A stretch of 64,000 nt of DNA from Bispira polyomma (lineage: Eukaryota), in NCBI GenBank assembly GCA_965649765.1, contig OZ287758.1, forward strand, positions 16,678,001-16,742,000, written 5' to 3'. The number at the start of each line of letters is the position of its first letter. Position 1 is the first letter of the stretch. The notes under the pieces were generated by a model that saw only the letters and a list, made by a program, of their open reading frames with translations, was not told the origin of the DNA and made no database searches. Positions 1 through 49,470 of this stretch are shown here, one piece after another. Made by a program: the position numbers and the translations under genes.

Positions 1-1819
1 AGAAATAATATGTAAAGCCTTCATGGATTGGTTGAAAGCAACTGACCTGAAGACTGATTCGATTAAATAGTGCAGCTTTTATTCGAACCTGCACTAAATG
101 TAATGGTTATTTCCTTAGCTCATGCCCTAGCCCTCCACAAAATATCACCTCATGTTATTGACAGACGAAATGTAAAGATTGGAACCTTCCAATGGGCAAA
201 GGTAATTTGAAGAAAGATGTAAACAGTTAAATGGCTAGGGTAGTCATCATAACTTGACTATAGTAAATAACCCCCTTCCCCTCCACTTGAGGTCTCTGGA
301 AACAGAGTGTCCCAAATCCATATATAAAATTGTTGAAAACACTGCATTAAAAACAAGAGTAGACCCTTTGTTAGGTAAGATAATGGTGTTATTGGGCACA
401 AATGGCATTTGGCTCTTGAGACATCAACTCAAATATATAGTCATATGGCCAGGGTTGCATGGGACCCCCTATTAAGAATGTTTTACATTCACTCAGCAAA
501 TGGATCCTCCTCCTTAACCCAGGAATTCACCCAGACCCCATTGTTGTTCGAGGACAATAGCACAGCAATATCAATATATTTGAACAGGTAATGGTTAAAT
601 ATTCCTATTATTTTGTTATTTGACAGTTTAATAAAGTAAATCGATAGCTTAAGAACCCATTTGTTTTTTCCCATTGTTACAAGCAACAGAGCCTCGTTGT
701 CATATGGCGCCAATGAAGAGACAATGGCATTGCCAGAAGACATTAAACTAACGCTGATAGGAGTTATGTCTATATTTGAGCTATTTTATGTTCTACAATC
801 ATTACATATACAATAGGGTCAGTATTTTGTACAATTATAATGCCCTAAAACTTAATTCAGAGCTAATAAAACACTGCTTTGTACATCAGATGATATATAT
901 ATATCTAAAATCCTTACATGAAGTAATCGTCTAAACTAAAATAAGTGTGCCTGTAAGGAATAATTAACAGACTGCTAATGTAATAACCACAGTAGTATGT
1001 TAGAATATCACTGGAACAGAACGAGAATGAATGGCATACAGTAAGTTGTGAAAGTATGATATAAAAGTCAAATAAATATGCTTTAAATACCAGCAAGGTT
1101 GGCTGTCATGCAATTGAGCTTTGTGACGTTGTAGAAAGAGTACCACATCCTTATTGAATCAGTTTGTAAGCAATTTTTGATATAACTTTAGTACAGAGTA
1201 AGCAATCAGAGTGAGGTATATACTCAACATATCAAAGATCAGTTAACATTTATATTTAACCGAATAACATGAACCCAATCAACAACTGTGCACTATTTTA
1301 ATACCATTGTTGAATATGATCTACCCAAAACTGCAAATGTTCCAAATTCTACTGTCAATAAGTCACCCAGTATGGAGTATTGTAGTGCTATACAATCTTC
1401 ATGTAAATATAGCACATAAATTTCACAACATAAAATTTGTTGGGTTATTTCTTCCAAGCCCTGTTTTAATTTGGCATTTAAAAGGGGCGAAAAGTATTGT
1501 CCCCTCGTCTTGGTCAACTCATCCCCAGGGATTAAGGTGGTTCTATATTTATTTGGAATTGCGGAGAACTAAAGTACCAGACCTCTTTGTGGTCGGGATT
1601 GCTAAACTTAACTTTCATCTTCTCATCAAATTTTCAGCACTAAAAGCCAGGCAGCAGATGCAGAGCCCAATCTGACCTCTATCTGATGTCTCATAAAGAA
1701 GTACTAGAGATCATGTATTAGGTGAGACCTGTTGTGGTTAGGGTCCTATTTCAGATCTTATTTTATGAGAGACAGTCATCAGGATTAGATGTAAAAAGGT
1801 ATACACACGGAGATGTGTG

Positions 1820-28600: not shown

Positions 28601-30807
28601 ATAATTACTAACTTTATAATATGCCCTCAGCACATATTTTTGGTGGATTTCAATAAATTTAACCTCAGTTAAACCTTTGACCTGAAATTATGTGAAAATA
28701 CACGACAATTGGGAGTAGCACTTCTGATAGACACATTTACAAAGCAACCGCATTGCAACTTTTGTCACATTATTTAACAACAGCTACAATATCTTATTTA
28801 GCTATATCGAAAATACCAATAGTAAATGCAAAATCAGATTGTCTTTTATGTATAGGATAGTTATTTTAGGAGAGTAATTGACATTTCAGTTGTCATTAAG
28901 CAGTTGTCGATTTTATTGAGAAAGCAATATAGCTATCCCAATGACTTTTACAGCTAGAACAGACAACATGCAAGACAATCAGATTGTTTTACTTATGTAC
29001 TTGTCTCACAATGAAAAAAGTCAACCTAATCTCCATTTCTCCTGACAAATAAGAACATTCAATATTTACACTGTACTGCATAGCTTCCTAGAGCTAGGTG
29101 GTGTAGTGTGTGTGCATCTAAACCAATGTCTGGCATAGAGTCTCTTACATTTGTGGCAGGGGAAATAAGAGAACAGCTAAATAGCAGCAGGGTAACTCAG
29201 TAAATGAATATGTACATTACATGTATCCAGATGTAAAGGAGAAGTAGTCATTGGTAGAACTCCGAGATCATTTATTCTCTGACCAACTCAGACTTTACTT
29301 CTGCTGATAATAGACATCTCTTGGATTAATCACATTGAAATACATTCAAATTTAACCACCTGTATTTAGTATTTAAAGTGCTAATGAGCCTATTTGACTT
29401 CCCAAGTACAGCCAACCAGCACCACTAACTGTCATTGCCCTAACTAAATACAGAGGCTAGTGGGGATGATACCAGTTATCAAAGTCCCCAGGGTTCTTTA
29501 ACCTGTCTATAGTGATAGGACTGACATTTTAAGAGGTCGCCTGTCGATAGCTGGGGGCCCCCTAATGAATATTTGTACCAAATGGGAGCTTCCTCTGGAC
29601 GGTTTCTTAGATCTAGCTTGGTAGATGCCACCTAGGCGCCCATTCAGACAATCCGGGTGAAAACAGTAGCCCACAACCTATATTTAGACTATGGGGTAAA
29701 AAAACAACAGCACATATTTGTGAAACCCAGTCCAAGATACTAGAGTGAAGGGTTATGGACAATAATTACACAACCCAAAAATACATATAAAAAGGCTCGA
29801 ATGTGGTAAGTGGCGTGTGGTTACAGCCGTAACCAGACAGGCCTGTGAAGTCAATTAGTGAGTGATGCATCACCCCTCAACCAGCTACCACGATTATAAT
29901 GGAGCAAATCCCCAAAGTCCTTAATGTCATTAAACACACATTCACATCCATAATTAAACACGCTAAATGGCCAGTTGGGGTCCAATCCTCTTTAATACGG
30001 AATACAAAATATATATATATATGGAGAGACCATATGTGCCGAGTGACAGGATGAGTGAAAGCTGCTTCAGAAGAGCTTATTATTGTCCTAAGTGGCTGAC
30101 ACCAGCTGTAAGAGGGCCCTACACTGAGTTATGGTACATGTCCAGCAGTATGAATTAGTTATACTAAGCCAGACAGCTGTGTACAAAGGAAGGTCAGAAG
30201 TACAGCCACATATATGAAGGAAGAACACCCGAAAAATTATTAAAAAAAAATATGGTATGCATAAAACTATTCTTGAATACTTAAGTTTTAAATGTTTGCA
30301 TCATTGCTTGTGCAATACGCTTTTTGCTATATTAAGATATAAAAATTGTCCCTTCGTTATAATAATCTCCCAATAACAGTATTTATAAAGTACTGACTAA
30401 CCTTTTCTTGTCTGCCAACAGCCAACCAGCATCAGTTAACTAGCATTCCTCTTAATTAAGATAGAAACGTAAGGATGACCCTTTGCCAACGTCCCCAATG
30501 GTATTTAACCTTTCACTAGGACAAAACCTCATGACAGAGGACCACTAATTTAGAGCCTGTACTCGATTGTCCCAGCCTAGCCCCAGACTGGGATCAAAGC
30601 CAGATCATCGGCGCTCCAAAACAAGAGTGCTATCTAATAGGCCACAGTATAGCATCAGAAGTATACATTAAGTAGACAAAAACACCTGTACTCGTTACCC
30701 TTTGATTAGTCTGGTCTCAACCTCGCTTTCAGCACGTTGTGTGTCATGGTAGCAGAGATGGGGGCGAGTGTGTTACGGCACCACAGAGGCCCCTCTCTAC
30801 TATTTGT

Positions 30808-31163
30808 GTAAAGGGTTCATTCTTTTGGAAGAATATAAAGTTATTAGGACATTCTTTCAAAAAGTGGACTATCTTTGGTGTTTGATATGTTGAAAAGTAT
30901 ATTGAGTTAATATTTTACTGAAATACATATACAACTTATGATAAAAATTAGGCACAGAACAATGATCTCAAAATTGCATATTTGTATTATTACCCTGCTT
31001 TGTCTTGTACATTTTATATATATATAAACTAATCATATAGTGATAGGAAACTAAATTATAAAGTGTATATATATATGAAATACAATATGATTAATATTTC
31101 AAAAACATCAAGGTTAGCAGATTCAAATGTGTATTTATGAAGTTACAGAATGTACTTCTTTAA
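30808..31163. mobile_element. Kolobok-like dispersed MITE (related copy ~23465-23806)
   Basis: taaaggg...ctttaa ends. The right part (taaactaatc...ggaaact...ataaagtgta...attaatat.tcaaaa...agattca...aagttaca) is shared with 23665-23806. Confidence 0.45.
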
Positions 31164-32588
31164 ATTTTAATGTTTCCCTTTTTCGTGCAGAATTTCTTCT
31201 CCCTGACAAACTGGCTACTTTCTACATACACTATATAGTGTGGGAAAAATCGGCTTCAAGTGACAGTTGACATGGCCACTTACTGAATGTGTAATGACTA
31301 TTAATAAAGGAAGACACGGCTAGCTCCTCTCAGCTATATATCAAGTCTAGCTGTGTGCTGAAGGGAAGGAGAGTTATGTGTGTCTGTGTGTTTAAAGGTT
31401 CCCAGTGGAACACTCAATATACAGGCAACACATTGTGTTCAGAGCTCCCAGCATTATAGGCTGTGGGATGAAATGGTGTTGTGTGGTGATAATTAGTTTA
31501 GACTGACTAATTGATAAAAAATAGTTATTGTTTATTGTGAAATATACTTACATAGACAGTCTAGGGGTTTATTTTTATATCAACATTTTTTTAAACATCT
31601 AATCAACAATAAATTAGACATACAATGTCTACATCAAATAAATGAATGTCTTTGGAAGTTAGTAAATATTTAATGAAATACATGGCTGAGAGATTAATAA
31701 AGCATCCTTAGCTCATATCCTACAGTGGGGGAATTTATTACATTCGGATTTGTCAACACTAACTGCTTTGTGAGGGATTATAGTCAGCTGGAGTAACCGT
31801 GGACATTTTGTTATGATCTTTAAACATTTTGTTCCAGGAATTGGATATCTTGTGGATATATAAATATAGATACAACGTCTTGTCTCATGGGGAATCAACA
31901 TAACTATGACCATACATGTATTAGTGATTTTGTTCATGTGAAGAAGGGTTTTCAACATGTGACTGTGACATGTTAAAAATGTTGACTTATAGCAGAGAAT
32001 ACTAATAGTATTGTATACAGTTTAAAATCCATGGAATAGATGTTAATTATAAAGAGTTGAGATACACAAGTGACAGATGTTTCTTTATAATGGTAGTTAC
32101 TGGACTAAAGACTAATAGTGACTCACCCAATGTGTGTTCTTGTCTTATACTGATTCTATTTGGCACAGGTATATATTACATTAGGTCACATGGTTATTTT
32201 AGATTATTTATACAAAGTAATACTTCTGCTCTGTTTTGTTTTTGAATACATCAAATGAACTTTCAGATACAAAGTAGTAAATGCAACATAACATGTCAAA
32301 GATAAAATAAAGTTAATTGTGCAATGGGATGTAATGACTGGAACAGGATGCATTATGGTGACATATCTCCATCACAAAGTCTGTTTGTGTTAGGATAGAA
32401 TTATATATATATATGTATATAGCACATTAATCCTAGGTGTTTATGGTACAAACCAATATAAAAAAGGTAATGACAAAATATATAACAGTGACTCTCCTTT
32501 GTGTTTCAGAATTAAAAATTGGAAACCAAAAGTAAAAAGTGAGACATTGTCTTTTATACTATGGTGTAATGACCAGTCCTGTGTAACC

Positions 32589-32682
32589 ATGGTGATTAGA
32601 GACAGGTCAGAGGGCCTCAAGGTCGGGGTGGGTGGGACCAGGACCTACCAGTTATACCTATTGATTACACTCGTCTTTGTAG
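32589..32682 (+). CDS. Coding exon 1 of channel-less iGluR ligand-binding-domain protein (start codon and first part of signal sequence)
   Basis: Acceptor ctttgtgtttcag ends at 32509. ATG at 32589 is in strong context (accATGg). Translates MVIRDRSEGLKVGVGGTRTYQLYLLITLVFV-G. Consensus donor G|gtaagt at 32683 is phase 1 and joins the 43801 exon in frame, giving one continuous hydrophobic segment. Confidence 0.75.
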
Positions 32683-34869
32683 GTAAGTAACTCTTTGTAA
32701 TCATGTTTTCTTATATGACATTTACTACAAAATATGACTTTGCTGACCTTTTCAGGAACAGAAAACTTTTCAAAGCAATTAATTGCCAAGTTGATTTCTA
32801 TATTCTATTGTGGCGTAGTGGGTAATATACTTGCTTAGGAATGACCAGAGGACCTGGGTTCTCTCAGCCTTGGGTATATAGACACAGTCAGATACATAAT
32901 GGCCTGGATGACAACTTAATATGGCGATCCTCTGTCAAAGGGTCCTGTCACCAATGACAGGCAACTTTAGAACCTTTGAGGATGTTGATAAATGGTCATC
33001 CTGAAGACTCTCTGAACTCTCTCAGAATTTATATCCCAGTATCTATCAATTAAAAAGGAGTGATTAAATAGCTGACATGTAAATATTTAACCAAATCTCA
33101 CAGAAGCGAGGGTATCACCTTTGATGGGTTGCCTATTTAGATAGTAATTACCTCCACCCAGAGTATTGTGTTTTGGACGGTCATTTCTTGCTCTCAGACA
33201 AAGACTACTGAATCAATTTACATGATATTTGGAGGAAATGGACTAAATAAATAATACATAAGATTTTGTAGCAGATCTGGCTAGAAGGGGGGTCGGGGCT
33301 TGAGGAGACTTCTTCCTCTGTTACATATTACCAGACAAGTCAGTAGCTATAACATCAACACATAGATCCAATGACACAGTTCTGTTACCAGCCATGTTAA
33401 ATTGCTGTCTTTATGGCTGTTTTTCTCCACTTGAGGAGTAGTTTATAGTAATCTTAGCTTTGATTACCAGATTCACCTTTCTCGTAGCTATTGTGAATGC
33501 TTATCAACAACAGTCACTATTGTACAGTCTTTATTGTCGGTTTGTTACTCAAAACCAGCAATACATTAGCAATATAGTGTAATACTGAGCTAGAATTTCG
33601 CTTTCTATCATAACATTATTCCGAGGTTTTAATTACACACACTTTGCATTCCTCCCACAATCTGCACCACACTAGAGCATTGATTTCCTGCCAATTCGAG
33701 GCAACACCTGACGACATTTTTTGTTAAGTCTGAAATACATGAAATAACTCGAATTTTAAAATTCTAATCCTGTTTTAACCCATTCATCAATAGGTCAGTC
33801 GATAAAGCTATCTGCACATGAAAGGCTTGCATTACTATTGACATATTTACAGTTTTTGTAATGGCTTTTTGTTGATGTATTTATTTTATCCTGTGTAGTA
33901 AATGAGTTTGTTTTACATAAACATGTAGCTTGTCATGAACGCGAGACAGGAATTCTAGAAGTTGAGGGTGTGTGCACTTGATTTCCAGTGCAGTAAATAA
34001 AAATAACACTTTATGTCTCACTTGGAACTAAAAGGTTTCCATTGACATGTGCTATTTTGTAACTACCAGCATGCCATGAACATGTTAGGCGCAGTTTTCG
34101 TTTAGTTTCCGGTTCACTTCACTTTTCAGTGTGGCCAAGCAGAGGACCCAGGTTTCGTCCCATTCTGGGGTTTCTCCCTACAGGCAGATACATGATGGTC
34201 TGATCACCACTTAGTCCTCTTGTCATTAGGTCATATCCCTATCGGCAAACTAAAGAATATTGTGGAACTGTTGATAAATGGTGTCATCTTCAAGCCTTGT
34301 CGTTAGGGGAATGTCACTTGTGGTATTGAATGGTTGTACTTGTACAGTCATGAAAAAGTACATTATTGAATACCTTGAAAGCAGGGACATACTGCACTGA
34401 AGATTAATATGGAAACAAATATGAATACAAAATTGTACAACTTAAACACATGTCTTCACATATAAGTACATAATGTTTTGGTGCCAGTACCAAACCAAAA
34501 TGATTGTTGCTCTTTTCTTGTGTTGGATCCAAGCCTATTTTGTTTGGTGTGTTAATGGGTAAAAGTTAATATTTCTATTGTTCTTTTAACCACCTCTTAA
34601 ACTTATAAACAAACGTATTCTATTCTCAGCTGTATTTATCCATTATTGAAAGCTAGTTGCCAGTATTTACAGTAAAGAGCTAGCTTTAAACATGATCCAA
34701 GCTGAAATAAATTAGCAAAGGTGTAGTTTTTCATGTTCCTTTCATGCCTCATCGCCATTTGATTACCTTTAAATATAGAACAAACTGTTCTGAGTCATCA
34801 AAGAACATTTTTTTTAAATTTTCAGTTTTAGATTGTAGGTTCTTTTTGTTAAGGTTGTGTATCTACACG

Positions 34870-35623
34870 CAATTGTGTTATAAAAGTGGTCTTTATAAAG
34901 AAGTGATCTAGTACAAGGTGGTACCTCTCACACAATTGTGTTATAAAAGTGGTCTTTATAAAGAGGTGATCTAGTACAAGGTGGTATCTCCCACACAATT
35001 GTGTTATAAAAGTGATCTTTGTAAAGAGGTGATCTAGTACAAGGTGGTATCTCTCACACAATTGTTATAAAAGTGGTCTTTATAAAGAGGTGATCTAGTA
35101 CAAGGTGGTATCTCCCACACAATTTTGTTATAAAAGTGGTCTTTATAAAGAGGTGATCTAGTACAAGATGGTATCTCTCACACAATTGTGTTATAAAAGT
35201 GGTCTTTATAAAGAAGTGATCTCGTACAAGGTGGTATCTCTCACACAATTTTGTTATAAAAGTGGTCTTTATGAAGAGGTGATCTAGTACAAGGTGGTAT
35301 CTCCCACACAATTGTGTTATAAAAGTGGTCTTTATGAAGAGGTGATCTAGTACAAGGTGGTATCTCCCACACAATTGTGTTATAAAAGTGGTCTTTATGA
35401 AGAGGTGATCTAGTACAAGGTGGTATCTCCCACACAATTGTGTTATAAAAGTGATCTTTGTAAAGAGGTGATCTCGTACAAGGTGGTATCTCCCACACAA
35501 TTGTGTTATAAAAGTGATCTTTGTAAAGAGGTGATCTAGTACAAGGTGGTATCTCTCACGCAATTGTTATAAAAGTGGTCTTTTTAAAGAGGTGATCTAG
35601 TACAAGCTGATATCTCTCACACA
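34870..35623. repeat. 63-bp minisatellite, ~12 near-identical units (intron 1)
   Basis: Unit caattgtgttataaaagtggtctttataaagaggtgatctagtacaaggtggtatctc(t/c)caca. It explains the repetitive ORFs at 34849-35563. Confidence 0.97.
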
Positions 35624-38600
35624 CTTTTGAATGTATAGAAGAACCTCCATTATCCAAACCTGTTGACAAATGTATTTGGATAATAGATAAAAGTTTTGAA
35701 TATAGAGATTCACAGTATAAAAAGTAGCAAATGTAATTTTTGGAGATTTAAAGTAAACTGGATTATCTATTTTTTAGATAACAGAAGTCCGAGTGTTAGA
35801 CGTTATATTATATGTTAATTTAATCAACTTTAATTAGAACAGTAAAACCTTTTTGATTCTGGAAGATGACTGTTCTGACTTGTCCCAGACAGCGCTTGAA
35901 GTGATATATTTCCTCAAGGATTAGCCTCAAGCCTCAGTTGATCAAAGGGGTTAATTAATATTTCACTTTGCTTTTGCAGCTTGTTACAAAAATCAGGGCC
36001 TTAGAGCGACAGTGTGGTTGTTTATGAGTTTTATGAAACCCCTAAAACAGTCTATAATTCTTACTTTTATTGTCTTATAAGGAGCCTGTCTAATTCTGAG
36101 GGATCTTCTACATTAAATAGCCCACTGGATATTTCATCTGCAAGAGAAGTGATTCTTAAGGCCTCCAGGAAGAAAAATGTGTGCATGTGCCAATATTTAA
36201 CATCCAACAAATTTATGATTTTACAGTTCCTTGATATGTTAATAGCTTTTACACGGTAACACATATTTTTAAATCTAATTTACTCAGCAATTACAACCAT
36301 GCAATTCTATGTTTGTAACTTAAGGGTAGTACAATAGGTCCCCCAGCCATACACATACAGCCAGTATTAACCCATTCAACCACAATCAGAACTCGGTAAG
36401 ATGGGGGATTTCCTGTTATTGTCCAATCTATATAAATGTGTCAGAGGCCTTGACGTGGAGACGTTTCAGTAATGAATAAAAAGCTCAAGTGGTATGAGTT
36501 AAATTATTTGGTCAGATTAAAGTTTTAACCATATGGTCGTAAACATGGCCATAGATTTTTTATGGGTTAACACACTTATTGCATAGATTATGGCAATACA
36601 AACTATCAAATAGAATGTAATCACAATTTAAAAAAGGAAATCTTCACTAGAGAATGAAAATCGAATGTGATATTTGGGTGGGACATTTTGGCATCACTGG
36701 AACTTGTTGGTTTGTTTATACATCAATGAAGCATTGTGTTTTATCAATGGTTTACTGTCTCATCTGTGTCTAAAACATATTTAGTCAATAGAACCCCACT
36801 GAATGATGAAAACATACAATACACAGATTATAATCCATAACAATACCCATTCAATTAGCATGAACAAAATTAATTAGAAAATATGCACTGTGTTGTAAAT
36901 GTAAACACATTTGGTTCCAATTTTCAATATCCCCTGATAAAAACTTTCATGTCACATTGTAAACACAAAAACTAAAGGTTACAAGAACCAAAAAGACATA
37001 AATAAAACGTACAAAATACATTTTAAAATGATCGAAGTATTTGATAAAATATGCCCTAATGGTAATACTATATATTTTACAGGTGTAACATTTTGTGGGG
37101 AATGGAGAAATCGGAAGAGGGAAGGGGTGTTCTTCACAGGTTTTAATAATAATAATAACTATTATTATTCACTTGATATAGTGCAGTTATGAACATTACT
37201 GTTATCTAATGAGCTATGACATTATTACCTCAACCAGTTTTTCGTCCCTCAGAAAGCATACTAGCCGTGCTGTCACATATGGCACACAAAGACTAACACC
37301 CAAAAGCGGCCAGGTACCTATGTATACACCTGTGCAGAGAGGGACAACTTTGTGTGAAGTACCTTGTACAAGGGTACAATCACCAGGCCGGTAGCGAGGA
37401 TAGAAGTGGGACCCTCAGATCTTTCAGATTCAATGTCTAACACTCTAACTGCTAGACCACTGAGACCACACATAATAACTCTTGGGAAGTAATTGGGGTG
37501 GTTTCTGGTTAAAAGTATTGGGTGGTTGGTCTTCACAGGTTCAAAATACTGTGAATTGTGGTTTTAAAACTGGTTGCTCTAGACAGGTGGTTGCTCTTTG
37601 CAGGTGGTTGCATGAGCAGTTTAGACTATATTAACACACATATAATGTATTAACCTCTTCTTTATATGTTAATACACATCCATTTGGACTATTTTAGAGA
37701 TGCTTAAACCTCTTCTGGGTTGTTGACTAGTACTGAGTACTTTCCATATCTGTTTGTGGTGTTGTTCTCTGGTAAAACTGTGCCACAGGATGCTGCCAGA
37801 ATCCATATATTTTAACATACTGGGCTGGTGTTAAAAGAAACTTATTCTTTACCTTTTGCTTTAAGAAATTTGATTGGCTGGTCAAATTGTTTAAAGCAAC
37901 CTGATTGGCTGAAACTTAGAACATTCTAAAAATGGCAGTGTTAGAATGTTTCTGAATATCGCCCTAGAAATACATTGTCACAATACGTTAAGCAACGCTA
38001 CCAGAATCCATACAAAATTTAATTCTTTCTCTGTATTCAAGGCATTGCCTATAGTACATAACTACAGTAACTTCAACCAGTCTAAGTCTGTCACAGGATA
38101 GGAGTCTGTGTCTAAAATCAAAGTAAACCTGTCATACTCCTCTCATAAGACATCATTAATGGCTCCAGGGTGACTGCTCAGCATCATGTGAGCATTGATA
38201 CAGATTGGGACATGAATCAAACTTACATAGCAGGACTCTATTGAGAGTGAAGAAATCTCAGTCTGAGATGTAATATATCAAGTGGGCTATTGTTAGGACT
38301 CTCAGCATGACTGGCATGACATGCCTCACCAAAGATTAATTACTTTCCAGAGTGATATTTAAATTGAAGAATGCACATATAAATAGATAGAAGTCAGCTG
38401 AATAAAGCAGCCTTAAAGTTCAGTGACTAGTTTCTTAAAGCAACTTACTTTATTGGATAGGTCAAACAAGTTGGAAATAAACTTCTACAACCAACAATTG
38501 TTTTACAACATTTTTTATTTAAATCAATACCATTTCTATTGATATCTTTAAGTACAAACCATATTTGCTATTACTACAATATAACTTCTAGTAATCAAAC

Positions 38601-41600
38601 ATCAATTCTCCAAAAATAAAGTGCATGAACTCATTTGCAATCTTTTATACTGAAAACTTTTCGGTGTACTGCAAAAGTGGATCTTTTTGGGTCCTCATTA
38701 TATGTGCCCCTATTGTGAGAGCATAGGATGTGTGAAGATATGAAGATAAACTTCTGTGAATGTTAAGGGAGAGAGACATTTGTTTTTATAGTGACACCAG
38801 CATTCTAATATTCTATGTAAACTTTAACAAAGCATAAACATGGCAGCCAGCTCAGCATACATGGGCTTATGAGGCACCTTTTTTTACTAAGTACATGAGA
38901 TACAAATAATATATCTATAGCATCAACAACAGTATATATAAACGTGATATATATGGCTATATACAAATAATACATATAGCATAAAACAACAAAGTGTACA
39001 GACATGTGATACATATGGTGCAAGGGCTATTTAAATATTGGATGTTTATGTTCATCATATATATATAGTTCCCAAATAATCACAAAAATGAGTTCTATTT
39101 TCTTTCTGCATCTGAAATTTTTACTTTTCTGGATGGCTTTAAGACTTTAAAGTCAGATTTTTACTACTAATATATTTTATTAATTTACTCAGTTCATCCC
39201 AAAAAGCTACACAGTTGAAAGTTAAATTAATTTATTAATGTATTATACATCTCTGCAGCATTTTATTTGAACTATTAGCTCCGGCATGTGATATTTAAGA
39301 TTTTTTATGAAATAAAGAAGATCTATTTTGGGATATGATAGTTTTTTAAAATTTCTTTTTAACAAATACCTAGTGTTAGAATTGGGATAATAAAGACGAA
39401 GTTCTGAGTCAGATAAAGTTCTGTTGAAAGCCATTTGTTTGGCATGAGAAAATGGTGACCTGTCATCACAACGTCAAAATCTTACATGTTTGAAATACTT
39501 GGAGTCTGTAATAAACCAAATAAATCCCCTTTTGTACTGGGTAAATAAAAATTTCAGCTTAACAATTTAATTGAATTATTTTTCACTTTTGATTATTTTT
39601 TTGTTAAAATATCAGCGCAAGTTTCAGTTTCATTTAAAATTATTTTTCACTATCCACCACTAGCTAAAATACAATAGTCAAGTACCCCGATATTTTAAAG
39701 TAATATCCAAATTATAATCTGGATAATAAATAAAATGGACCTAATTCTAATATATGTTGCAGATAATAATACAATTCTTTGTATAAAATAAGGGCAAGAC
39801 CCAAACAGATATTGTCAGATAAAGTTCTGTTGAATGCTATTAGTTTGAGTCCAGAGAGATGACATAACTTTCTCTTGTCCCTCTTGGGCCTCCTTAATGA
39901 CTGCACTGATCCCCCTCTTACAACATTCTAAGGTTTGATAAGTCAGTAATTACAGTAAGAAGGATGTCCCCGGGGTTGGGTAAACTAACACAAAGATAAT
40001 GATGTCAAATAAAGACCTCACTCATTGTACGGAGAGCCTTATGATGTGGGGGTTCTGGTTTTATCATTATTATTTCAAAAACAGTAAAACAAATGATACA
40101 CACTTTGTGAAGTGCTGTTTGGAATTGGTATAGAGGAATAACACTTTATTACAATAAATGTAATAAAAATGTTTTAATTATTCTGGAAATACTGTTGAGT
40201 ATTACATGTTTCACTTCAAAAAATTGTAATGTGCTATATATATTGTTTAAAAAAACAATAAAAAAAACAACTTTACAAATACATTGTACATGACTCTAGA
40301 ATTTTAGATTTGGATAAATTGTGAAACACAGAACACCCGAAAGATTTATTTGGCCAAAGGCCATACAAACAGCTGGATGTAGTTCATTTGTAAAACGCCA
40401 CCATTTACAGCTTTATCCAATTACAAAGGCGTTTTATTGCAAAAACAAAACAGCCCTGCAAAAGTATCCAAGTGAAGTCTGATGTTCTCCTTGGGCCAGA
40501 AAACCGACAGATATTTCTGCAATGGCCGCCTGAGAACAGCCCCATTTGCAAGTGCTAAGTGAATTCTCTGATTATCTTCATCAATGTTTTATCACGTTAT
40601 AAAAGGTGTAAGCAGTTCATTAAGTTCATTTCTCCAATAATTATATCAACTTAGGAGAAATTGTATTTTGATCAAAATTAAACAGAAGGCGTGTTTATAC
40701 TGATGTGGGACTGTTTGAATAAACAAGTGACCCACCGGTCAGCCACTTTTGTCAGATTTAACCCACAATACCCTGCAGCCACCTGATGCTTTGATATGAG
40801 TGATTCGTCCCTAAAGAAATCTTTTTGATTTAGTTTAGAGTTTTACTTACTATATAAAGAATAAGACGGGAAGTATAGTGATAAATAAATTGTTCATTTC
40901 CAGTTATATATTTTTCGCAAAAATCACATGAAAGAACATTTTAATATATTAGATTAGTTTGATTTAACATTATTTTCATCAACTAGTACCAGTATATAAG
41001 GGTCCCGTGCTTTTACTGTGACAGCCACTTCAGTATGGAATAGAGTTTGTACTAAAATTCAGGCAGCTGCAACTCTGTCATCCCTCAGAAGTAGGTCATT
41101 TGTTTCAATTAGCCTTCTATGTGGTTTTATACTCAAATAATCACTAAGAAAGGGACTAGACAATGCTGTGTCTCTAGGTGTACACCTTGCAGGTGTTTAA
41201 CAGGGTGGATGAAGTGGTTTGGTAAACTACCATTCTAGGCGCGGATGTTTTTAAAACCATGGCCAAATGCCTCTTTTCTTTAGTGGCTCTTATCCAGCTT
41301 AATTAAATATAAACAATGACTTCCGGTTATATTCTTCCAGATCGGCGTGTGCATAGTGGCTTGGATGACCACTTATAATGGTGGTCCTCTGGCACTAGGT
41401 TCTATCACCAGTGGCAGGCTAAAGATACTTGAGGACGTTGATAAATGGTCATCCTCAAGGCAGATATATGCACTAAGTATAGATTTGAATACAGAATCCA
41501 GGTATCTTAATTGACTTCAGGCAGTCTTAAACACCATAAAAGCTCTTACATTACATGATCTCCAAACTGTATCTAAACCTTGCAGTGGCCTTTATAAATC

Positions 41601-43800
41601 ACAGACCACAATAACCCTTGTTCCCTCACACAAACCAAACATTTATAGAAATAAGCCCCCAGATTGGAGTTCCCTGGAACTGGTAAATCATTTCTCTGTG
41701 TGAGAAAATGAGGAAGTCCCTGTGTGTCCAAACAGACAGTAATGTGATTGTGTTTACACAGATTACTACTCATACTCCTACTGTGACTAACTCTCTGAGG
41801 ACTTTACTCATCACATACAAACATCCTTTTTGAAAGCTCACTCACATTTATTCTGTCAAATCAAATCTAGATATAAATGGTTTGACTATACTTTGTACTG
41901 TTGTGGTTGCACATTCTTTGTATTACTTGCCCATCTGTTGTATTTAAGAAAGTTAATATGACTAGAGTAAGATTAGCCCCTATCTGGCCTGCCAGTGTAA
42001 AGTCTGACAAATGGCCAGTGGCCCTAATGTTAGTGAGGGTCATTCATCAAGGCTCTGATGTGATCAGCCTTGGTCATTTCTTCTACCAATCATGTGTCTG
42101 CACACACAGACACCCAAACACTGACGCATACACCCACACACCACCACCCACATCTACAGCACATCGAATGGCCTGTCTCCATCTTTACAAACCACGCATA
42201 CATGTCAAAATGTTTGCTCCTTATACAATCTAACCTGCGTAGAGCAACCACCTACCAGAAATTCCCAACTGTTTTTTTCTTCAGAAGCAGTTGCTTTTTT
42301 ACAAGTTCACCAATGAAATAGTCAAAGTCTGCACCATATCATGTTGGAAAACATTATAAAGGCTTCATCTGAAAAGAAAAAAGTCATTCTATTTACATGA
42401 TTAAATTTATTAACATTACATATTTCACAAGTTCACATTTAACTGATTTCTCTTTAATAAATGTTGGTTTACAAAATTGCTGCAAATTTGAAAATAGAAT
42501 CAAGAGCAGGTCTCAAAAGTTTACTAATGCATAAATCATAATCCTCAATAATCAATAAGAGGGATAAATCTTATACTAGGCAAACAAATATATTCCATAA
42601 AACCCACTGAATGATAAAATCATACAATACAATCCTATTTGTTGACAAACAAATTTAGTCACCATGGAATGGTAAAAAAATACAATACACATATATTACC
42701 TCAAGGCCCTATTGTGGTTGATGACACTGATATAATGTCTATAGCATTACCAATGCCAATTGGATTGAACACAGTTGATAAGAAAAGATTCACTTTGCTT
42801 TAAAAGCAACATGGAAACGGGTGTATGGAAACGGTACTTAACCTACACAATGTTTGTGTGGAGGCAGCAGATGGGCTATTGATCCTCTAACTTATTTATC
42901 TTTGTATCATGGTAACACATACCTTACACTACACATAATGAAATGATTAACGGTTTATCAACAAGCCATTACAGAGATTAAGCAGAAGAAACTCATTTCC
43001 CCAAAAAATCATCACATCAGAGAATTATCTATAGGCTGTTCATGAAATCACGGATTCTCGGTAACTTAGTAAGGTCTCTATGATTACTTTTGTTGGTGGT
43101 ATGCCTGTGGTCTAGTGATCAGGTGGCCAGAAGCTCATCGGTTTGACTCTTAGTTGAGGGGGTTGGTTTAGTAATCTGAAGGTCCCTGGTTTAACTCCTG
43201 CTAATACTGCTAGGTTCATTGGTAGGATAACGTGGTTAGGCAAGAGGTGAACATTGCCCACCCACTAATGATGATCAGGCACTACTGCTTTGCAGAGGAT
43301 GATATATCAATAGAGTGCTACATAAATGCTTCAATAATCAAAAACTGTTCTTGCAGGAATTATTACTTCAAACATATACAGATGATTTAAAAAAAATTAT
43401 TAGTCATTTTAGATTCATCACAGAACAGCCTCCATAAGCTAAACGTTGTAAATTTAACCTGACGTAACATGGCCGACAGTGTTATTCCAATGATTTTGGT
43501 TTAGTTTTTATTTTATATTAATTGATATGTACCATGTTAGCATGAAGTAACAGAAAATCGGCTACTTTATCATATATAAGGAATGAGGGGATGTATTTAT
43601 TTTTACCAGATTCTATCTCTATGTGTGCTAATTTTGATTTACAACGTTTTCCTTATGCAAGCCGTTCTGTCCCTTTTTGTGAGTCCGTCGTCAAAATAAC
43701 AGCAAGGAATCTCGCTAAATAGGGACAGATTATTCGGTCTACATTGCCAGATATGATCTCTGTGGCTTTAAAATAAAATGTATTTGTTTATTATTTCAAG

Positions 43801-43883
43801 GACTCTATTCTGTACTTACAGCAGTAGTGACTCTGCCGTCTGTTACAGAAGCCAGGAACCATTATAGAGTGACATCAGTGTTG
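43801..43883 (+). CDS. Coding exon 2: end of signal peptide and first beta-strand of iGluR S1
   Basis: Acceptor ttatttcaag| and donor ttg|gtgagt; 83 nt, phase 1 to phase 0. Reads (G)LYSVLTAVVTLPSVTEA-RNHYRVTSVL. YRVTSVL|IEPY aligns with the VVVTTIL-ESPY motif that opens S1 in AMPA/kainate receptors. Confidence 0.85.
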
Positions 43884-45477
43884 GTGAGTATAGACATGGA
43901 ACATGTAGTAATGTCAGCACCATAGAGTAGTGTGGCTTATATCAGAAGTAATCAGGGGAACTGAGCAACTAATAAATAAGTAAAATGTATAGCTTTCTCT
44001 CGGGACATGTTTTCTAAGTGTGGTACTGTTTGTCCAGGTACATTTTGTCTTGATATGTTTTCTACATCCCACTTTTTTTAATTTACATTTAGCCAGTTAC
44101 GATAAAAAGATTGTATTCACTATATTTATGAATAAGGATATTCTCCTCTATAATACCACTGGTACTAAATTAATTAGTTCCTGCAGTTACACATATAATT
44201 TTCATTTTATTTAAAACACTACTAAGTCTATCACACGGTATTCACTGCATTACACTGTATACATTACCTAGAATTATTATTAAGTTGGCATCTAGTTGTT
44301 ATTTTTCTATGCTTAAATTCTACCTTGTCATGCTGATCATGTTTAATACATTTCTATCACACTGCAATTAAGTGAATGCAATAGCTGATACATTGAAGTT
44401 TGAAGGTATTGGCCATTTCCTTAGTGCTAAGAAGGGGTTAGAAACACTACTATCTAGTGATATTCTGCTGGAGAAGTCAAACCTTCTCTGCTTACAACTA
44501 ATTAACCTGGCTATTTTGATTCAGATTGATATTTAATACACCAAACAACGTGGGCCCATATCTTCTAAGAAACTCAAGCTTAAACTCCACTCAAATGAAG
44601 GCTAACCTGTACATAAAACCGTTCATTTCAGCTTTCAGCACTCAATTTTAATATGCACTGAAATCTAACTTTATCCAGATATTATAGAGACTTCAGTTTT
44701 GATCTTAGAAAATAAGGCAATGCCATGGGAAATTACTAAGTAACGTCGATATTTCTTCAGAGCAAACATAAAATAATTACTGAATCATGTAATTGTCAGA
44801 CATAGAGACTGCCACTGATGTATATACCCTGTTTCAAAACACAAGTTAGACTCTAACTGATTCAATAATTATAATTTAATCACGTCTAATATATCATTTG
44901 TGACATTTTAACAACTTTTGCTTCTGAGGAAAACGTGTTGGGGTAAATAGCCATTAGTGTTGGCTTACTTCACGTTTTGTGCACTATGAATATAGAAAAA
45001 CAACAAACGAAGTGCCAACATGGAAAATTAATTGAAATGTATTTTACTTACTGTTGTCAAAATATTTTTATCAAATAAAAGTTAATACGATTTTTTTTTT
45101 TAATAAAAAATGAACAAATCTTAATTTCCAGTAGGGGTGAGTCTATTCTAGTTCACTGGTCCAAATACACTAATGATATTTTTTCCTCAAATCTTAGACT
45201 GGCTCAGATTTGTCAATTTTTGCTACCAAACAATTTCCTAAACAAAAGGTCACAAGAGTAAATTATTGTCAATATGTGGCAACAGAAAGATTTGCTTAAG
45301 TATTGACAGTATTTTCAAAGATATGGCTTCTTAATATAATGTATGACATGGTTTTATCTCCAGTCCTTCTCTTAATAGTACACAGGTTTTAAATTAAATG
45401 TTAGCTACGATAAAATATAATCAAAATACAGATTTACTTAAAATTACCAAGGATTTAATTATTTTGCTTGCCATCCC

Positions 45478-46132
45478 AGATCATGGGATACCTTCTGTTC
45501 ACCAGACCAACTCCCTAACAACTAGACCATGGGATACCTTCTGTTCACCAGACCAACTCCCTAACAACTAGACCATGGAATACCTTCTGATCACCATCCC
45601 AACTCCCTAACAACTAGGCGATGAGATACCTTCTGATCACCAGACCAACTCCCTAACCACTAGACCATAGGATACATTCTGATCACCAGACCAACTCCCT
45701 AACAACTAGACCATAGGATACCTTCTGTTCACCAGACCAACTCCCTAACCACTAGACCATAGAATACCTTCTGATCACCAGTCCAGCCCTTAAAAACTAG
45801 GCTATGAGATACCTTCTGATCACCAGACCAACTCCCTAACAACTAGGCGATGGAATACCTTCTGATCACCAGACCAACTCCCTAACAACTAGGCGATGGA
45901 ATACCTTCTGTTCACCAGACCAACTCCCTAACAACTGGACCATAGGATACATTCTGATCACCAGACCAACTCCCTAACAACTAGGCGATGGAATACCTTC
46001 TGATCACCAGACCAACTCCCTAACAACTAGGCGATGGAATACCTTCTGATCACCAGACCAACTCCCTAACCACTAGACCATAGGATACCTTCTGATCACC
46101 AGTCTTGCCCTTAAAAACTATGCTATGGGATA
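45478..46132. repeat. 46-bp minisatellite, ~14 units, ending ~45 nt before exon 3
   Basis: Unit ccatgggataccttctg(a/t)tcaccagaccaactccctaacaactaga. Confidence 0.97.
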
Positions 46133-46177
46133 CTACTTGGCCTATATTATATCTAACAAATTGTTTTCTTATTTCAG

Positions 46178-46381
46178 ATAGAGCCGTATTTAATGGTCAA
46201 CCCTAAGTATGCTAACCACACAGGCAATGACCAGTACATGGGTTACATTGCTGACCTAATGCATGAACTGTCCCAACGTGTGGGATTTCACTACAGGATC
46301 CACGTGGTCAGGGATGGCGCATACGGGATCCGGAGATCCGACGGATCCTGGGATGGTATGATAGGAGAGCTCCAGAGAGAG
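46178..46381 (+). CDS. Coding exon 3: iGluR S1 lobe
   Basis: Acceptor tttcttatttcag| and donor gag|gtgagt; 204 nt, phase 0-0. Reads IEPYLMVNPKYANHTGNDQYMGYIADLMHELSQRVGFHYRIHVVRDGAYGIRRSDGSWDGMIGELQRE, matching S1 motifs GNxxYxGYxxDL, DGxYG and WxGMxGEL. Confidence 0.95.
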
Positions 46382-46741
46382 GTGAGTAGGTCAGAATGGT
46401 GTTTTAAAATGGCAGTGAATACAACATGAAAATAATTGTCTTGTGTGGATTTTAAACAACTGGTCAATATGTCAGAAATCAAGAGGCTGTATACAGGCCT
46501 TGACCGAGTATTGGTAACACCACTTATCTCCCACATCTGCAGTCCTGGGTTTAAATCATGACCCTTGTGTGTATGTGAGAAAGTTGGTAGCATACCTAAT
46601 GAAGGCCAGTGGTTTGCAGATCGAAAAGCCTTGACCAGCTACCCCTACTGTGATTTCCTCAAACAGTGAAATGCATATTGTAAAATGGCACAAAACATGT
46701 TAAAAGCGTTGTGAAACCTAACTAAATTCAACGTAAGCCCA

Positions 46742-47130
46742 CACTAAACTAAACATAAGGGATGCAGTAATGATGCCTCGGAACATAGAAACCAGTTCAT
46801 CATAATCTGTCTAATTATCTGTATTAGATCCTTTGCTATGTTCTCATTTTCACTATTTCTACTTATTAATTCAAATTAAACCCAAACAAAACATAAAGGC
46901 TCTAGTAATTATGCCCCAGAACATACAAACCAGTTACTAATAATCTGTCCGATCTATATTAGATCCTTTGCTTTTTTCTCACTTTTACTATTTCTACTTA
47001 TAAATTCAAATTAAACCCAAACTGAACATAAAGGCTGCAGTAATTATACCCCGGAACATACAAACCAGTTCATCATAATCTGTCTAATCTACTATTATAT
47101 CCTTTGCTAATTTCTCACCTATTTCTACTG
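46742..47130. repeat. ~136-bp tandem repeat, 3 units, filling the 3' half of intron 3
   Basis: gaacata.aaaccagtt occurs at 46781, 46919 and 47054, and the downstream sequence is colinear. Confidence 0.9.
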
Positions 47131-47140
47131 CTCTGTACAG

Positions 47141-47833
47141 GAAGCAGACATTGCTGCTGCTCCTCTCTACATCACCAATCAGAGAAAGCGAGCTGTCAGC
47201 TTCTCAAAGCCTTTCTTGAATGTCCAGGCCACCATCCTCTTGTCTAAGTACGAGAAGTATCCCGGGATTAAGTCAGCCAGGGATCTGCTGGGACAAGGCC
47301 GGATCCAGTACGGCACTCTTAATACGGGGGTTATAGTGCATGCCTTTAAGAACAGCAATGACTCCACCTACAAGGCTATGTGGAATACGATGAAAGAGAA
47401 CGGGCCGGAGGTGTTTACAGCCAGTAATGTAGAGGGCATAGACCGTGTGAGGAGAGGGCATTACGCCTTTATACTGCCTTCTACCATAGGCCAATACATA
47501 TCAATGCAAACCCACTGTGATCTCAAGACACTGGACAGCTTTCTCATGAACAGGGAGTTTGCCTTAGCCGTGTCCAGGCACTCCAAGAACATGCCCTACA
47601 TGTTACCGGACATCAACATAGGGCTGGACATTATGAGAACCTCGGGAAAGCTGGACGAGATCTATAAGAAGTGGTGGCTAGATAAGAACCACTGTGGGAC
47701 AGTGAAAAGTAGTTCAGTAGTTAGCCAGGGACACTACACCTCTACTGGCCCCGGTATAGCCAATCAAATCACACGACACATTTTAACTATTGGCTGTCTG
47801 CTCTTTACATGGTTTGTTATTGGCTTTTGGTAA
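47141..47833 (+). CDS. Coding exon 4 (last): end of S1 fused directly to the whole of S2, plus C-terminal hydrophobic/GPI-like tail
   Basis: Acceptor ctctgtacag|. Reads EADIAAAPLYITNQRKRAVSFSKPFLNVQATILLSK (S1 end), YEKYP, then GIKSARDLLGQGRIQYGTL...MW...EGIDRVRRGHYAFIL...HCDL...GKLDEIYKKWWLDKNHC (S2), then a spacer and ILTIGCLLFTWFVIGFW*. 231 codons with no internal stop; TAA at 47831-47833. Confidence 0.95.
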   Translation, partial: EADIAAAPLYITNQRKRAVSFSKPFLNVQATILLSKYEKYPGIKSARDLLGQGRIQYGTLNTGVIVHAFKNSNDSTYKAMWNTMKENGPEVFTASNVEGIDRVRRGHYAFILPSTIGQYISMQTHCDLKTLDSFLMNREFALAVSRHSKNMPYMLPDINIGLDIMRTSGKLDEIYKKWWLDKNHCGTVKSSSVVSQGHYTSTGPGIANQITRHILTIGCLLFTWFVIGFW

Positions 47834-49258
47834 TAGTTTGTTGGGGTAGTATAAACTGTGTGTATATGTATATATGGCTTAAGGTGATTAGTAATGACCA
47901 CAGCTGTCGCTGAATGCCCATTTTTTCATCAAATAATCCTAATATTGACTTCCCTTTACGGTGAATGAACCTTGACACAGACTCCTTTGAATTATGGAAT
48001 TGAACGATACAGTTCCAATATTATTTGTCATAATGGTAAAAAGTAAACACTATATTTCAAATAAATCATATAATAACATAACCCTTCATTTGCTTTGAAT
48101 GGTGTAGATGTTTGTGCACAATGTGTATGGATTTTTTTAGAGATAGCTTCATAAAGTATCTTTACACGAGATTTAATCAAATATAAACTGCAAATTCCAG
48201 TTATATTCAACAAGAGGGGGCAGTACTAATCGCCTTGGTCCGGTGTGTGAGTCTATGTGTATATGGTTCTATATATGTGTGTATGTATGGTTGCAAATAA
48301 GTCTGTATGAGAACGAGTGTGTAGGTGAGTATGTAAATGTCAGTAATGTGCCATATGTTCATTGTAGATACACATTATGGATGTATAACCACATTTATAT
48401 GTAGAGTTTTCTAGCCGGTTATTCACCAGTCAGTATTTTAATAATGTCTTTGTTGTATGCAATTTATACCTTGTAATTTACTGTATTTGTGAAGTTAGTA
48501 CATTATATATTTAACAATACCTTCTGTCTGCTCTTTTATACTATCTCAGTACATTGTTCAATGTTGATGGTAAACCGATGTAACTCTAGGCTTGATTGTG
48601 ATATATTTGTGGTGTAAATAGTTCATGTAGTGTTTAAACTAGACATACTGCTATGGGGTTGTAACTTCTACGCCCGAGTTTGTGTCACAGAAATTAAAAC
48701 ACTGACATTCTTCCTATGAGGTTTAATGTAATTTGTTTTTAACTTTTAGTGCTGTTATAATTATATCACATCTTAGTAATTATTATGTCTGCTAGGTCAT
48801 TGTACCATTGTTACAGCTTGGTAGAACGAATCTAGAATTCATTGAACAAGATGTTGCCATGTGGCATTTTTACTGTATAAATCTATTAATTAAATATAAT
48901 TATGATTGCTAATGCTGTAATGTTAGATATGGGAAGCCGACTCTAATTGTATGGCATTTGACATGTTCTATATTAAGAAATACTATTGCTGTGTCTCATA
49001 AATGATAGAATTTAGCCGCCTTATCATATGTACAAACTAGTGTTAATGTTATTTAAATGCGATGTTATTATGCTATCAGACTGACTAAGTCACAAGTCAC
49101 CAGAATGCCTCCTATCAGTTAAACACTTTGGGATTGCCATTTGGTCACTTTATCAAATGTGTGGATGAACCATAGAAATCCCCCGTATGACCACAATATC
49201 ACATCATCATTGGAACAACTGCACTTGTGACTCATTATACCTAGCATATGAAGAAATA

Positions 49259-49470
49259 GGGGCCCCGGCGGCCTTGTGGTTTTAAAGTGTCTGTTTCAAA
49301 ATCAATGGTCTCTCACCACTGGGTAGGTTTGAATCTGGTTTGTTACTTAATGTGGAAAAGTTTGCAGCATACTTGCTGTAGTTCGGTGACTTACAGTGCT
49401 TCAGCGCTGGTTTCTTCCACCGTTGACCTAGCTGTTGAAAACCATGTATAACCCATCTAAATTCCAATTT
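49259..49470 (+). mobile_element. Older family-B SINE
   Basis: ggggccccggcggccttgtggtt...ggtctctcaccactggg..ggtttgaatc...gctggtttcttccacc. Confidence 0.7.

Follow-up and report, generated by a model that had tools for sequence, protein, structure and literature searches.

A conserved and apparently undescribed iGluR ligand-binding domain, without a channel and with an altered pocket, in the annelid Bispira polyomma

The ligand-binding domain of an ion channel can exist as a stand-alone extracellular protein, as in the molluscan acetylcholine-binding protein, a soluble pentamer of the unrelated Cys-loop fold that keeps the ligand of its parent. The closest described relatives of the locus analyzed here are the ligand-binding domains of AMPA/kainate (AKDF) receptors and the GluA2 and GluA3 S1S2 constructs engineered from them. 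In GluA2, as described in passages of PMC5766834, the alpha-carboxylate of the ligand goes to R485, its amine to T480 and E705, through their side chains, and to the P478 backbone, and its gamma-carboxylate is contacted by the backbone of S654 and T655. Published criteria, stated in part of PMC6307864, are R485 with an acid at 705 for amino-acid binding, and G653 with T655 for glutamate. The acid-sensing IRs of insects (Drosophila IR75a/b, IR84a, IR64a and IR31a) also combine an iGluR-type clamshell and a carboxylate arginine with otherwise variable contacts. According to sections of PMC8575457 and PMC7882480, these IRs keep the S1 arginine, which IR84a requires, and the site equivalent to Y732 tunes chain length in IR75a/b. 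Since no odor-bound IR structure was available as of 2021, as stated in a section of PMC8575457, changes of ligand class within the iGluR clamshell are poorly resolved.

Our locus is part of contig C11 in a genome of 1.03 Gb assembled in 75 contigs, and falls within the window, the whole stretch of 64,000 nucleotides that was analyzed. Its product shares the fold of AMPA/kainate ligand-binding domains and of the GluA2/GluA3 constructs at 36-38% identity, and retains R485, Y450, P478, G653, the S2 disulfide and two intron positions of the genome's channel genes. Unlike the receptors, it lacks pore segments and has a hydrophobic tail, and an ATD was not found in the vicinity; T480, T655 and E705 are replaced, and the dimer-surface residues are unconserved. 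Engineered constructs join S1 to S2 where this gene does, but here the fusion is natural. The coordinates of the features are given in Table 1, with residues numbered by reference to P0067, a laboratory-style GluA3 S1S2 construct found among the collected proteins.

Table 1. Position and support of the features of the focal gene (window coordinates)
Feature	Coordinates	Strand	Basis or remark
Candidate signal-peptide exon (inferred)	43801..43883	+	Ends in phase 0, at the residue preceding position 402
S1 N-terminal exon	46178..46381	+	PF10613, E 6e-19; AG/GT ends; both sides in phase 0
I402, Y405 and Y450	46178, 46187, 46322	+	In the S1 N-terminal exon
Last coding exon (remainder of S1, short linker, complete S2, hydrophobic tail and stop codon)	47141..47833	+	Single 230-aa open frame
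Lobe-1 pocket strand	47162..47185	+	P478 kept; Y at 480 (TAC, 47168); T482 kept; R485 kept (47183)
Six-residue S1-S2 linker, where channels have M1, pore loop and M3	47249..47266	+	DNA contigs span the linker
G653 (kept), V654 and I655; former gamma-carboxyl subsite	47327..47335	+	V654 and I655 at 47330-47335
N686	47426..47428	+	Group counts
P705 (47477, in place of the amine-binding acid) and I708	47477..47488	+	
Two Cys corresponding to the S2 disulfide C718-C773	47516..47695	+	Both invariant in a 74-row alignment
F732	47558..47560	+	Present, not diagnostic
C-terminal hydrophobic tail, no cytoplasmic part	47780..47830	+	Predicted from hydropathy to be a GPI-type signal or a single tail anchor

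The three exons together provide 325 stop-free codons. The introns preceding residues 402 and 471 are in phase 0 at positions common to the channel genes of the genome, which supports an origin from an iGluR gene. DNA contigs from all three runs searched cover ~46059-49419 with zero differing letters (two samples from one study, which may be the assembly's own source), and show no splice joints at the gene. An assembly artifact as the source of the sequence or of the S1-S2 fusion was ruled out by these contigs and by the paralogues. Two tandem arrays, at 45478-46102 (46-base unit) and 46746-47118 (135-base unit), sit in the introns and stop 75 and 22 bases short of the acceptors; a third (63-base unit) lies at 34859-35623. 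In the paralogue on contig C7, the end of the S1 exon and its donor site are tandemly repeated into the intron (42-base unit, many copies), and a degenerate form of this repeat is found in two other S1 exons (L016, L017, L027 set).

The candidate signal-peptide exon was the best-scoring upstream donor candidate and joins to the later exons without a stop. It contains no in-frame ATG, the closest one (43778) being out of frame; the matching exon of the C7 paralogue has its own. Eight phase-1 ATG-plus-donor candidates with a score of at least 4 lie 19-36 kb upstream, none of which was selected, and at a score of 2.5 none was found within 30000-43790. The assembly is confirmed over 43745-44000 by two runs of one sample; the contig of the third run begins at 43830 and gives nothing further upstream. 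Either an upstream micro-exon provides the start, or the allele is damaged there. That the focal copy is a decaying gene, its substitutions mere drift, appears very improbable: the missing ATG and a young high-copy repeat ending 60 bases upstream of the candidate exon speak for decay, but the open frame runs stop-free over three exons, the splice phases match those of the paralogues and of the channel genes, and comparison with the C7 paralogue over 187 codons gave a pN of 0.25 against a pS of 0.79 (saturated). Moreover, relatives at 44-66% identity share the focal pocket identically, so that the substitutions are older than any decay. The repeat itself is interspersed, has inverted ends and terminates within ~43480-43741; a first look yielded 4068 candidates, and the scored copies are 92-97% identical.

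The initial homologue search returned only four matches. When 1.84 billion representatives were searched with a profile, 420 matches reached an E of 1e-30 or better, and the best 150 of these were analyzed; the profile was built from nine sequences, eight of them with P705, and thus favors P705 matches. After P0027, P0045, P0071, P0078, P0086 and P0060 had been left out, the core alignment held 160 sequences: 68 of a group with proline at 705 (the P705 group), 46 other channel-less proteins, 45 channels and one GluA3 construct. Numerous entries are single-exon fragments, and the denominators therefore differ from site to site. Median pairwise identity within the P705 group, as drawn from the best 150 of the 420 matches, is 40%. 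Those of its members that are named belong to two annelids, Capitella teleta and Helobdella robusta, and database names of the relatives are limited to "hypothetical protein" or domain labels. In the Logan entries P0015 and P0010, S1 and S2 share one frame on 1.2-1.6 kb contigs, which suggests spliced transcripts of relatives or intron-less genes in them. An Atlas search with the Capitella homologue returned iGluR clusters only, the top one being a 261-aa cluster with no channel family, in which the commonest phylum was Chordata.

The two-lobed S1/S2 fold is supported by sequence, Pfam and model comparisons. The last exon matches PF00497 and PF10613, not PF00060, and aligns as one stretch with engineered S1S2 constructs but as two stretches with the full-length GluA4 chain, placing the linker; M1, pore loop and M3 are thus missing, S1 and S2 being contiguous in a single exon. 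Among the matches listed on contig C11, the sole PF00060 match lies ~35 Mb away. No PF01094 (ATD) match was found near the locus among the 37 listed, nor among the 63 window ORFs of at least 78 aa, a threshold that small ATD exons could escape; the full-length homologues P0015 and P0025 have nothing but a leader ahead of S1. In the core alignment, built on the best 150 of the 420 matches, an internal transmembrane-like stretch was present in 0/68 P705-group members and 0/46 other channel-less proteins, as against 44 of the 45 channels. Judged from sequence, the gene product is an iGluR ligand-binding clamshell with no ion channel. Its 17-residue tail was modeled as a helix, and the best 15-residue stretch, with a hydropathy of 2.27, ends two residues before the stop; in the same set (best 150 of 420), a comparable tail occurs in 45 of the 68 P705-group members and 34 of the 46 other channel-less proteins. 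Visual inspection showed hydrophobic leaders in P0015, P0025 and the paralogues on C7 and C4. The protein is likely to be exported and tethered to the outer cell surface.

A first-pass annotation, made from the letters of the window alone, had described a pocket in which R485 and Y450 are kept and the substitutions T480Y, S654V, T655I, E705P, E402I and Y732F have accumulated. Residues and coordinates are all present in the sequence. With phmmer, the last exon matched 241 distinct PDB sequences, with GluA2, GluA3 and GluA4 S1S2 crystal constructs on top (E ~1e-31) and alignments ungapped at all last-exon pocket sites. An AlphaFold model of this exon, computed from a 74-row alignment, has a mean pLDDT of 89; its residues 1..185 cover GluA2 471..773 with an rmsd of 1.3-1.6 Å over 176-181 residues. 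The superposition yields range ends only, so the residue register combines the ungapped sequence alignment with these anchors. A full-length Capitella homologue with a similar pocket (pLDDT 87) best matched GluA3 (Z 32.2, rmsd 1.7 Å over 255 residues). I402 is backed by alignment to the GluA3 construct and by a phase-0 intron placed as in the genome's own channel genes. In none of the superpositions did an equivalent of E705 or T655 reappear.

In view of the GluA2 contacts and the published criteria, T480Y, E705P and T655I are the informative changes: the gene has R485 but proline in place of the acid at 705, and G653 but isoleucine in place of T655. The annotation's view that the alpha-amino and gamma-carboxyl contacts are both lost is correct for the side chains of T480, E705 and T655, all replaced, but goes too far for the amine, whose backbone contact at P478 is kept; the amino contacts are gone in two of three parts, not completely. 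Y732F, S654V and E402I are real but had been given too much weight, each carrying little information singly. S654 binds glutamate through its backbone, and E402 is, we presume, an inter-lobe rather than a ligand contact. Y732F was discarded as evidence: F732 is present in 85 of 94 longer matches, nearly all annotated as glutamate receptor 1 channels, and the P705 group itself is mixed at this site (Y38/F23 of 68). The sites that had been named are in register, but the near-invariant N686 and I708 had been overlooked.

The pocket is strongly conserved in the P705 group. Among the best 150 of the 420 matches, its members have R485 in 53/53, T482 in 52/53, G653 in 64/67, a residue among I, L, V and M at 655 in 64/67, N686 in 65/68 and I708 in 64/68. 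In this same set, proline occupies 705 in 63 of the 68 (Q in four, S in one) and an acid in none, and position 480 is Y in 28, F in 15, L in four, H in two, M in one and V in one of 51, never Thr. At position 402, the three alignable full-length members, the focal gene and two paralogues have I, L or V. We defined a joint signature at four key sites as a fused S1-S2 with R485 kept, a non-acidic residue at 705, and neither Thr nor Ser at 480 and 655; the focal gene has all of these features. In the core alignment, built on the best 150 of the 420 matches, 50 of 51 P705-group members carry this signature, as opposed to 0/34 other channel-less proteins and 0/45 channels, a uniformity beyond what chance would give, and the combination of arginine with D or E at 705 shows the reverse (0/51, 30/34 and 44/45, respectively). 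A P705-type pocket was found in none of the 45 channels and in none of the 94 longer matches, in a search that is weak for long proteins. The substitutions are thus common to orthologues and paralogues, as the first-pass annotation had proposed to verify, and its suggestion that the ligand is probably not glutamate holds. As judged from the alignments, the pocket is a signature of the group, not decay.

As an internal control, we considered E486, K493, L751 and E755, which we take to form the back-to-back dimer surface of AMPA-type receptors. These residues are kept in 40, 36, 41 and 41 of the 45 channels and are scattered in the P705 group, whereas positions 686 and 708 fall in the most variable tenth to quarter of channel columns and in the most conserved tenth in the P705 group. 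A fixed pocket beside a drifted dimer face indicates selection on the cleft rather than on that face. These data weaken the alternative that no small molecule is bound, the substituted residues instead occupying the cleft and locking the clamshell, which would serve at the surface in adhesion or as a scaffold, or pair with another membrane protein. This alternative is unlikely, though it has points in its favor: the gained residues (Y480, I655, P705, I708) are all apolar or rigid, a Tyr-Pro contact across the lobes could substitute for a ligand, and co-receptor IRs retain pocket residues with no known ligand role, according to a section of PMC7882480. Against it, besides the unconserved AMPA-type dimer surface, stand the invariance of R485 (53/53) and the retention of G653, which permits closure on a ligand (64/67), both among the best 150 of 420 matches. 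Burying an arginine with no anion to pair with is costly.

We then considered descent. FastTree grouped the 68 P705 members with a support of 0.84, and with pocket columns removed all 68 fell within a 71-member clade (0.955) together with three extra sequences. In IQ-TREE, with 52 rows and no pocket columns, the 22 sampled P705 members formed one clade (SH-aLRT 96.7, UFBoot 72), the focal protein was placed with P0003 and L002 (96.7/98), and all sampled channel-less proteins grouped with one ATD-less channel (91/99). In a 57-row tree that included five long-branch IR-like outgroups, the P705 group was broken up (20/35), and the five IR-like genes, from the same genome, attached within the group through a very long branch (40/72); support was weak throughout this tree. 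The case for monophyly of the P705 group without pocket columns is thus moderate. Median identity of the focal protein is 38% to AMPA/kainate-type channels, as compared to 18-26% to the genome's eight IR-like genes. Two proteins, P0159 and P0138, are channels of 450-490 aa without an ATD; in the tree, the former sits amid the channel-less proteins, whose source it may resemble. Because other channel-less proteins keep the amino-acid pocket, channel loss likely preceded the ligand switch, an order that we do not consider firm.

With the amine-binding side chains replaced throughout the group, the focal protein very probably does not bind glutamate, and by the same sequence criteria neither glutamate nor any other free amino acid is likely to be the ligand. 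Weak binding of a free amino acid (glycine, alanine or a hydrophobic one), with R485, the P478 carbonyl and aromatics standing in for E705, would agree with the retained P478 backbone contact and Y450. The ancestor probably bound amino acids, as arginine with D or E at 705 is found in 30 of the 34 other channel-less proteins, and G653 with a non-polar residue at 655 is listed as a glycine-candidate pattern in a passage of PMC6307864. However, the same paper, in the part drawn on here, regards amino-acid binding as abolished once the acid at 705 is lost, and among the best 150 of 420 matches D/E705 (0/68) and T480 (0/51) are absent from the P705 group; we consider such binding improbable.

We lean, with slightly better than even confidence, toward a small carboxylate lacking a free alpha-amino group as the ligand of the rewired clamshell. 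Its carboxylate would be clamped by R485 together with the main-chain amides of residues 480 and 654, Y480 and P705 would fill the room once held by the amine-binding Thr and Glu, and I655, I708 and I402, with Y450 as a lid, would form an apolar, aromatic wall to which N686 would add one polar contact. The lobes would shut on the ligand; since there is no pore, closure would gate no current, and the protein may buffer, scavenge or present the ligand, or relay its closed shape to a partner. The class of ligand may be a neutral-tailed organic acid, such as a short or branched fatty acid, a hydroxy or oxo acid or an aromatic acid, or, somewhat less probably, an N-methylated or sulfonium zwitterion (e.g. 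a betaine), held by the aromatics at 450, 480 and 732. By our count, position 480 is aromatic in 45 of 51 P705-group members (best 150 of 420 matches). Bacterial betaine-binding proteins use a cation-pi cage, and the aromatic preference at 480 fits such a cage, or mere packing on P705.

Instead of a simple carboxylic acid, R485 could also hold a sulfonate or phosphate anion, or a peptide or N-acylated amino acid by its C-terminus. Arginine and backbone amides are able to hold any oxyanion, and loss of E705 would equally suit an amide-blocked amine. By its title, entry 4h8j is a GluA2 ligand-binding domain with the sulfonate buffer MES. The data give no preference for these anions over a carboxylate, however, and the ancestral site is a carboxylate site; we regard them as quite improbable. 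Two further points temper the small-carboxylate reading that we prefer. R485 is retained in 32 of the 38 other channel-less proteins and in all channels (best 150 of 420 matches), and IR8a has all three contacts but is reported, in part of PMC7882480, as unlikely to recognize glutamate, so that a retained arginine is no proof of binding. In addition, bulky Y480, I655 and I708 could fill the cavity, as Tyr at 653 was modeled to block the pocket of amphioxus proteins in a section of PMC6307864.

The first-pass annotation had likened the pocket to ligand switching in insect IRs, with no mention of the missing ion channel of the focal protein. The retained arginine is backed by the literature on acid-sensing IRs; those receptors are, however, ion channels with a transmembrane domain (PMC7882480, in part), whereas the focal protein has no channel domain, and the analogy extends to pocket logic only. 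The site that tunes chain length in IR75a/b varies between Y and F in the P705 group, and IR75a retains all three main contacts (PMC8575457, in part), unlike our protein. From the sequences compared, the likeness is best read as convergent pocket logic.

The genome has five channel-less genes of this kind, four with P705, which vary among themselves at positions 480, 654 and 706. The fifth, L005 (contig C11, ~43.26 Mb), retains T480, T655 and D705. Like the focal protein, L005 and other annelid channel-less S1S2 proteins (Owenia CAH1773235, Ridgeia KAK2177910, Capitella ELU10795) have no internal transmembrane segment, but they differ in retaining the amino-acid pocket (R with D/E705 in 30/34, best 150 of 420). 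A second channel-less orthogroup (L005, P0008, P0011, P0013 and P0098) has mostly T480, T655 and D705, with Ser at 653, and is by its residues a candidate binder of glycine or of a small amino acid.

In the open literature, covered by titles and the starts of abstracts, nothing turned up on channel-less iGluR domains of annelids, on secreted or GPI-type iGluR domains or on a P705 pocket; the parts of PMC12226733 and PMC2924276 consulted make no mention of channel-less iGluR proteins, and a search on betaine and polychaete chemoreception yielded nothing usable. The main iGluR phylogeny dropped sequences without the M3 motif, according to a passage of PMC6307864, and this requirement probably filtered out channel-less proteins. 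The locus thus apparently encodes a real, conserved and undescribed variant of the iGluR ligand-binding domain. We tentatively propose that annelids possess a multigene family, so far undescribed, of pore-less iGluR clamshells tethered to the cell surface; in one of its branches, organic acids or betaines would have taken the place of amino acids as ligands after channel loss, in convergence with the acid sensing of insect IRs. If true, these iGluR-derived proteins would play a part like that of acetylcholine-binding and odorant-binding proteins and would sense, buffer or present metabolites, differing from acetylcholine-binding protein in a changed pocket and a predicted tether, and the four paralogues would form a small tuned repertoire. 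A conserved pore-less branch would imply an extracellular signaling or buffering role for annelid iGluR domains, on which the searched literature is silent. As natural S1S2 constructs, they should be easy to express, screen and crystallize, making ligand switching testable and offering scaffolds for metabolite sensors.

Several other iGluR-related proteins were encountered. In P0121, P0135 and P0152, a channel-less S1S2 domain is followed by 300-480 extra residues; the extension of P0152 is of low complexity and rich in Thr, Pro and Ser, and this protein has Pro at 705 and falls outside the main group. P0027 is a 989-aa entry with two tandem ATD-less channel units, possibly a gene-model fusion. 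On contig C1, L007, L010, L011 and L013 are intron-poor iGluR channels in which the end of S1, M1-M3 and S2 share one exon and position 705 is Asp; three of them cluster near 99.5-99.6 Mb. Finally, L040-L045, L047 and L048 (contigs C6 and C1) are divergent, clustered IR-like channel genes with single frames of 520-710 aa, which keep R485 and D705 and, in the C6 copies, have Phe at 655.
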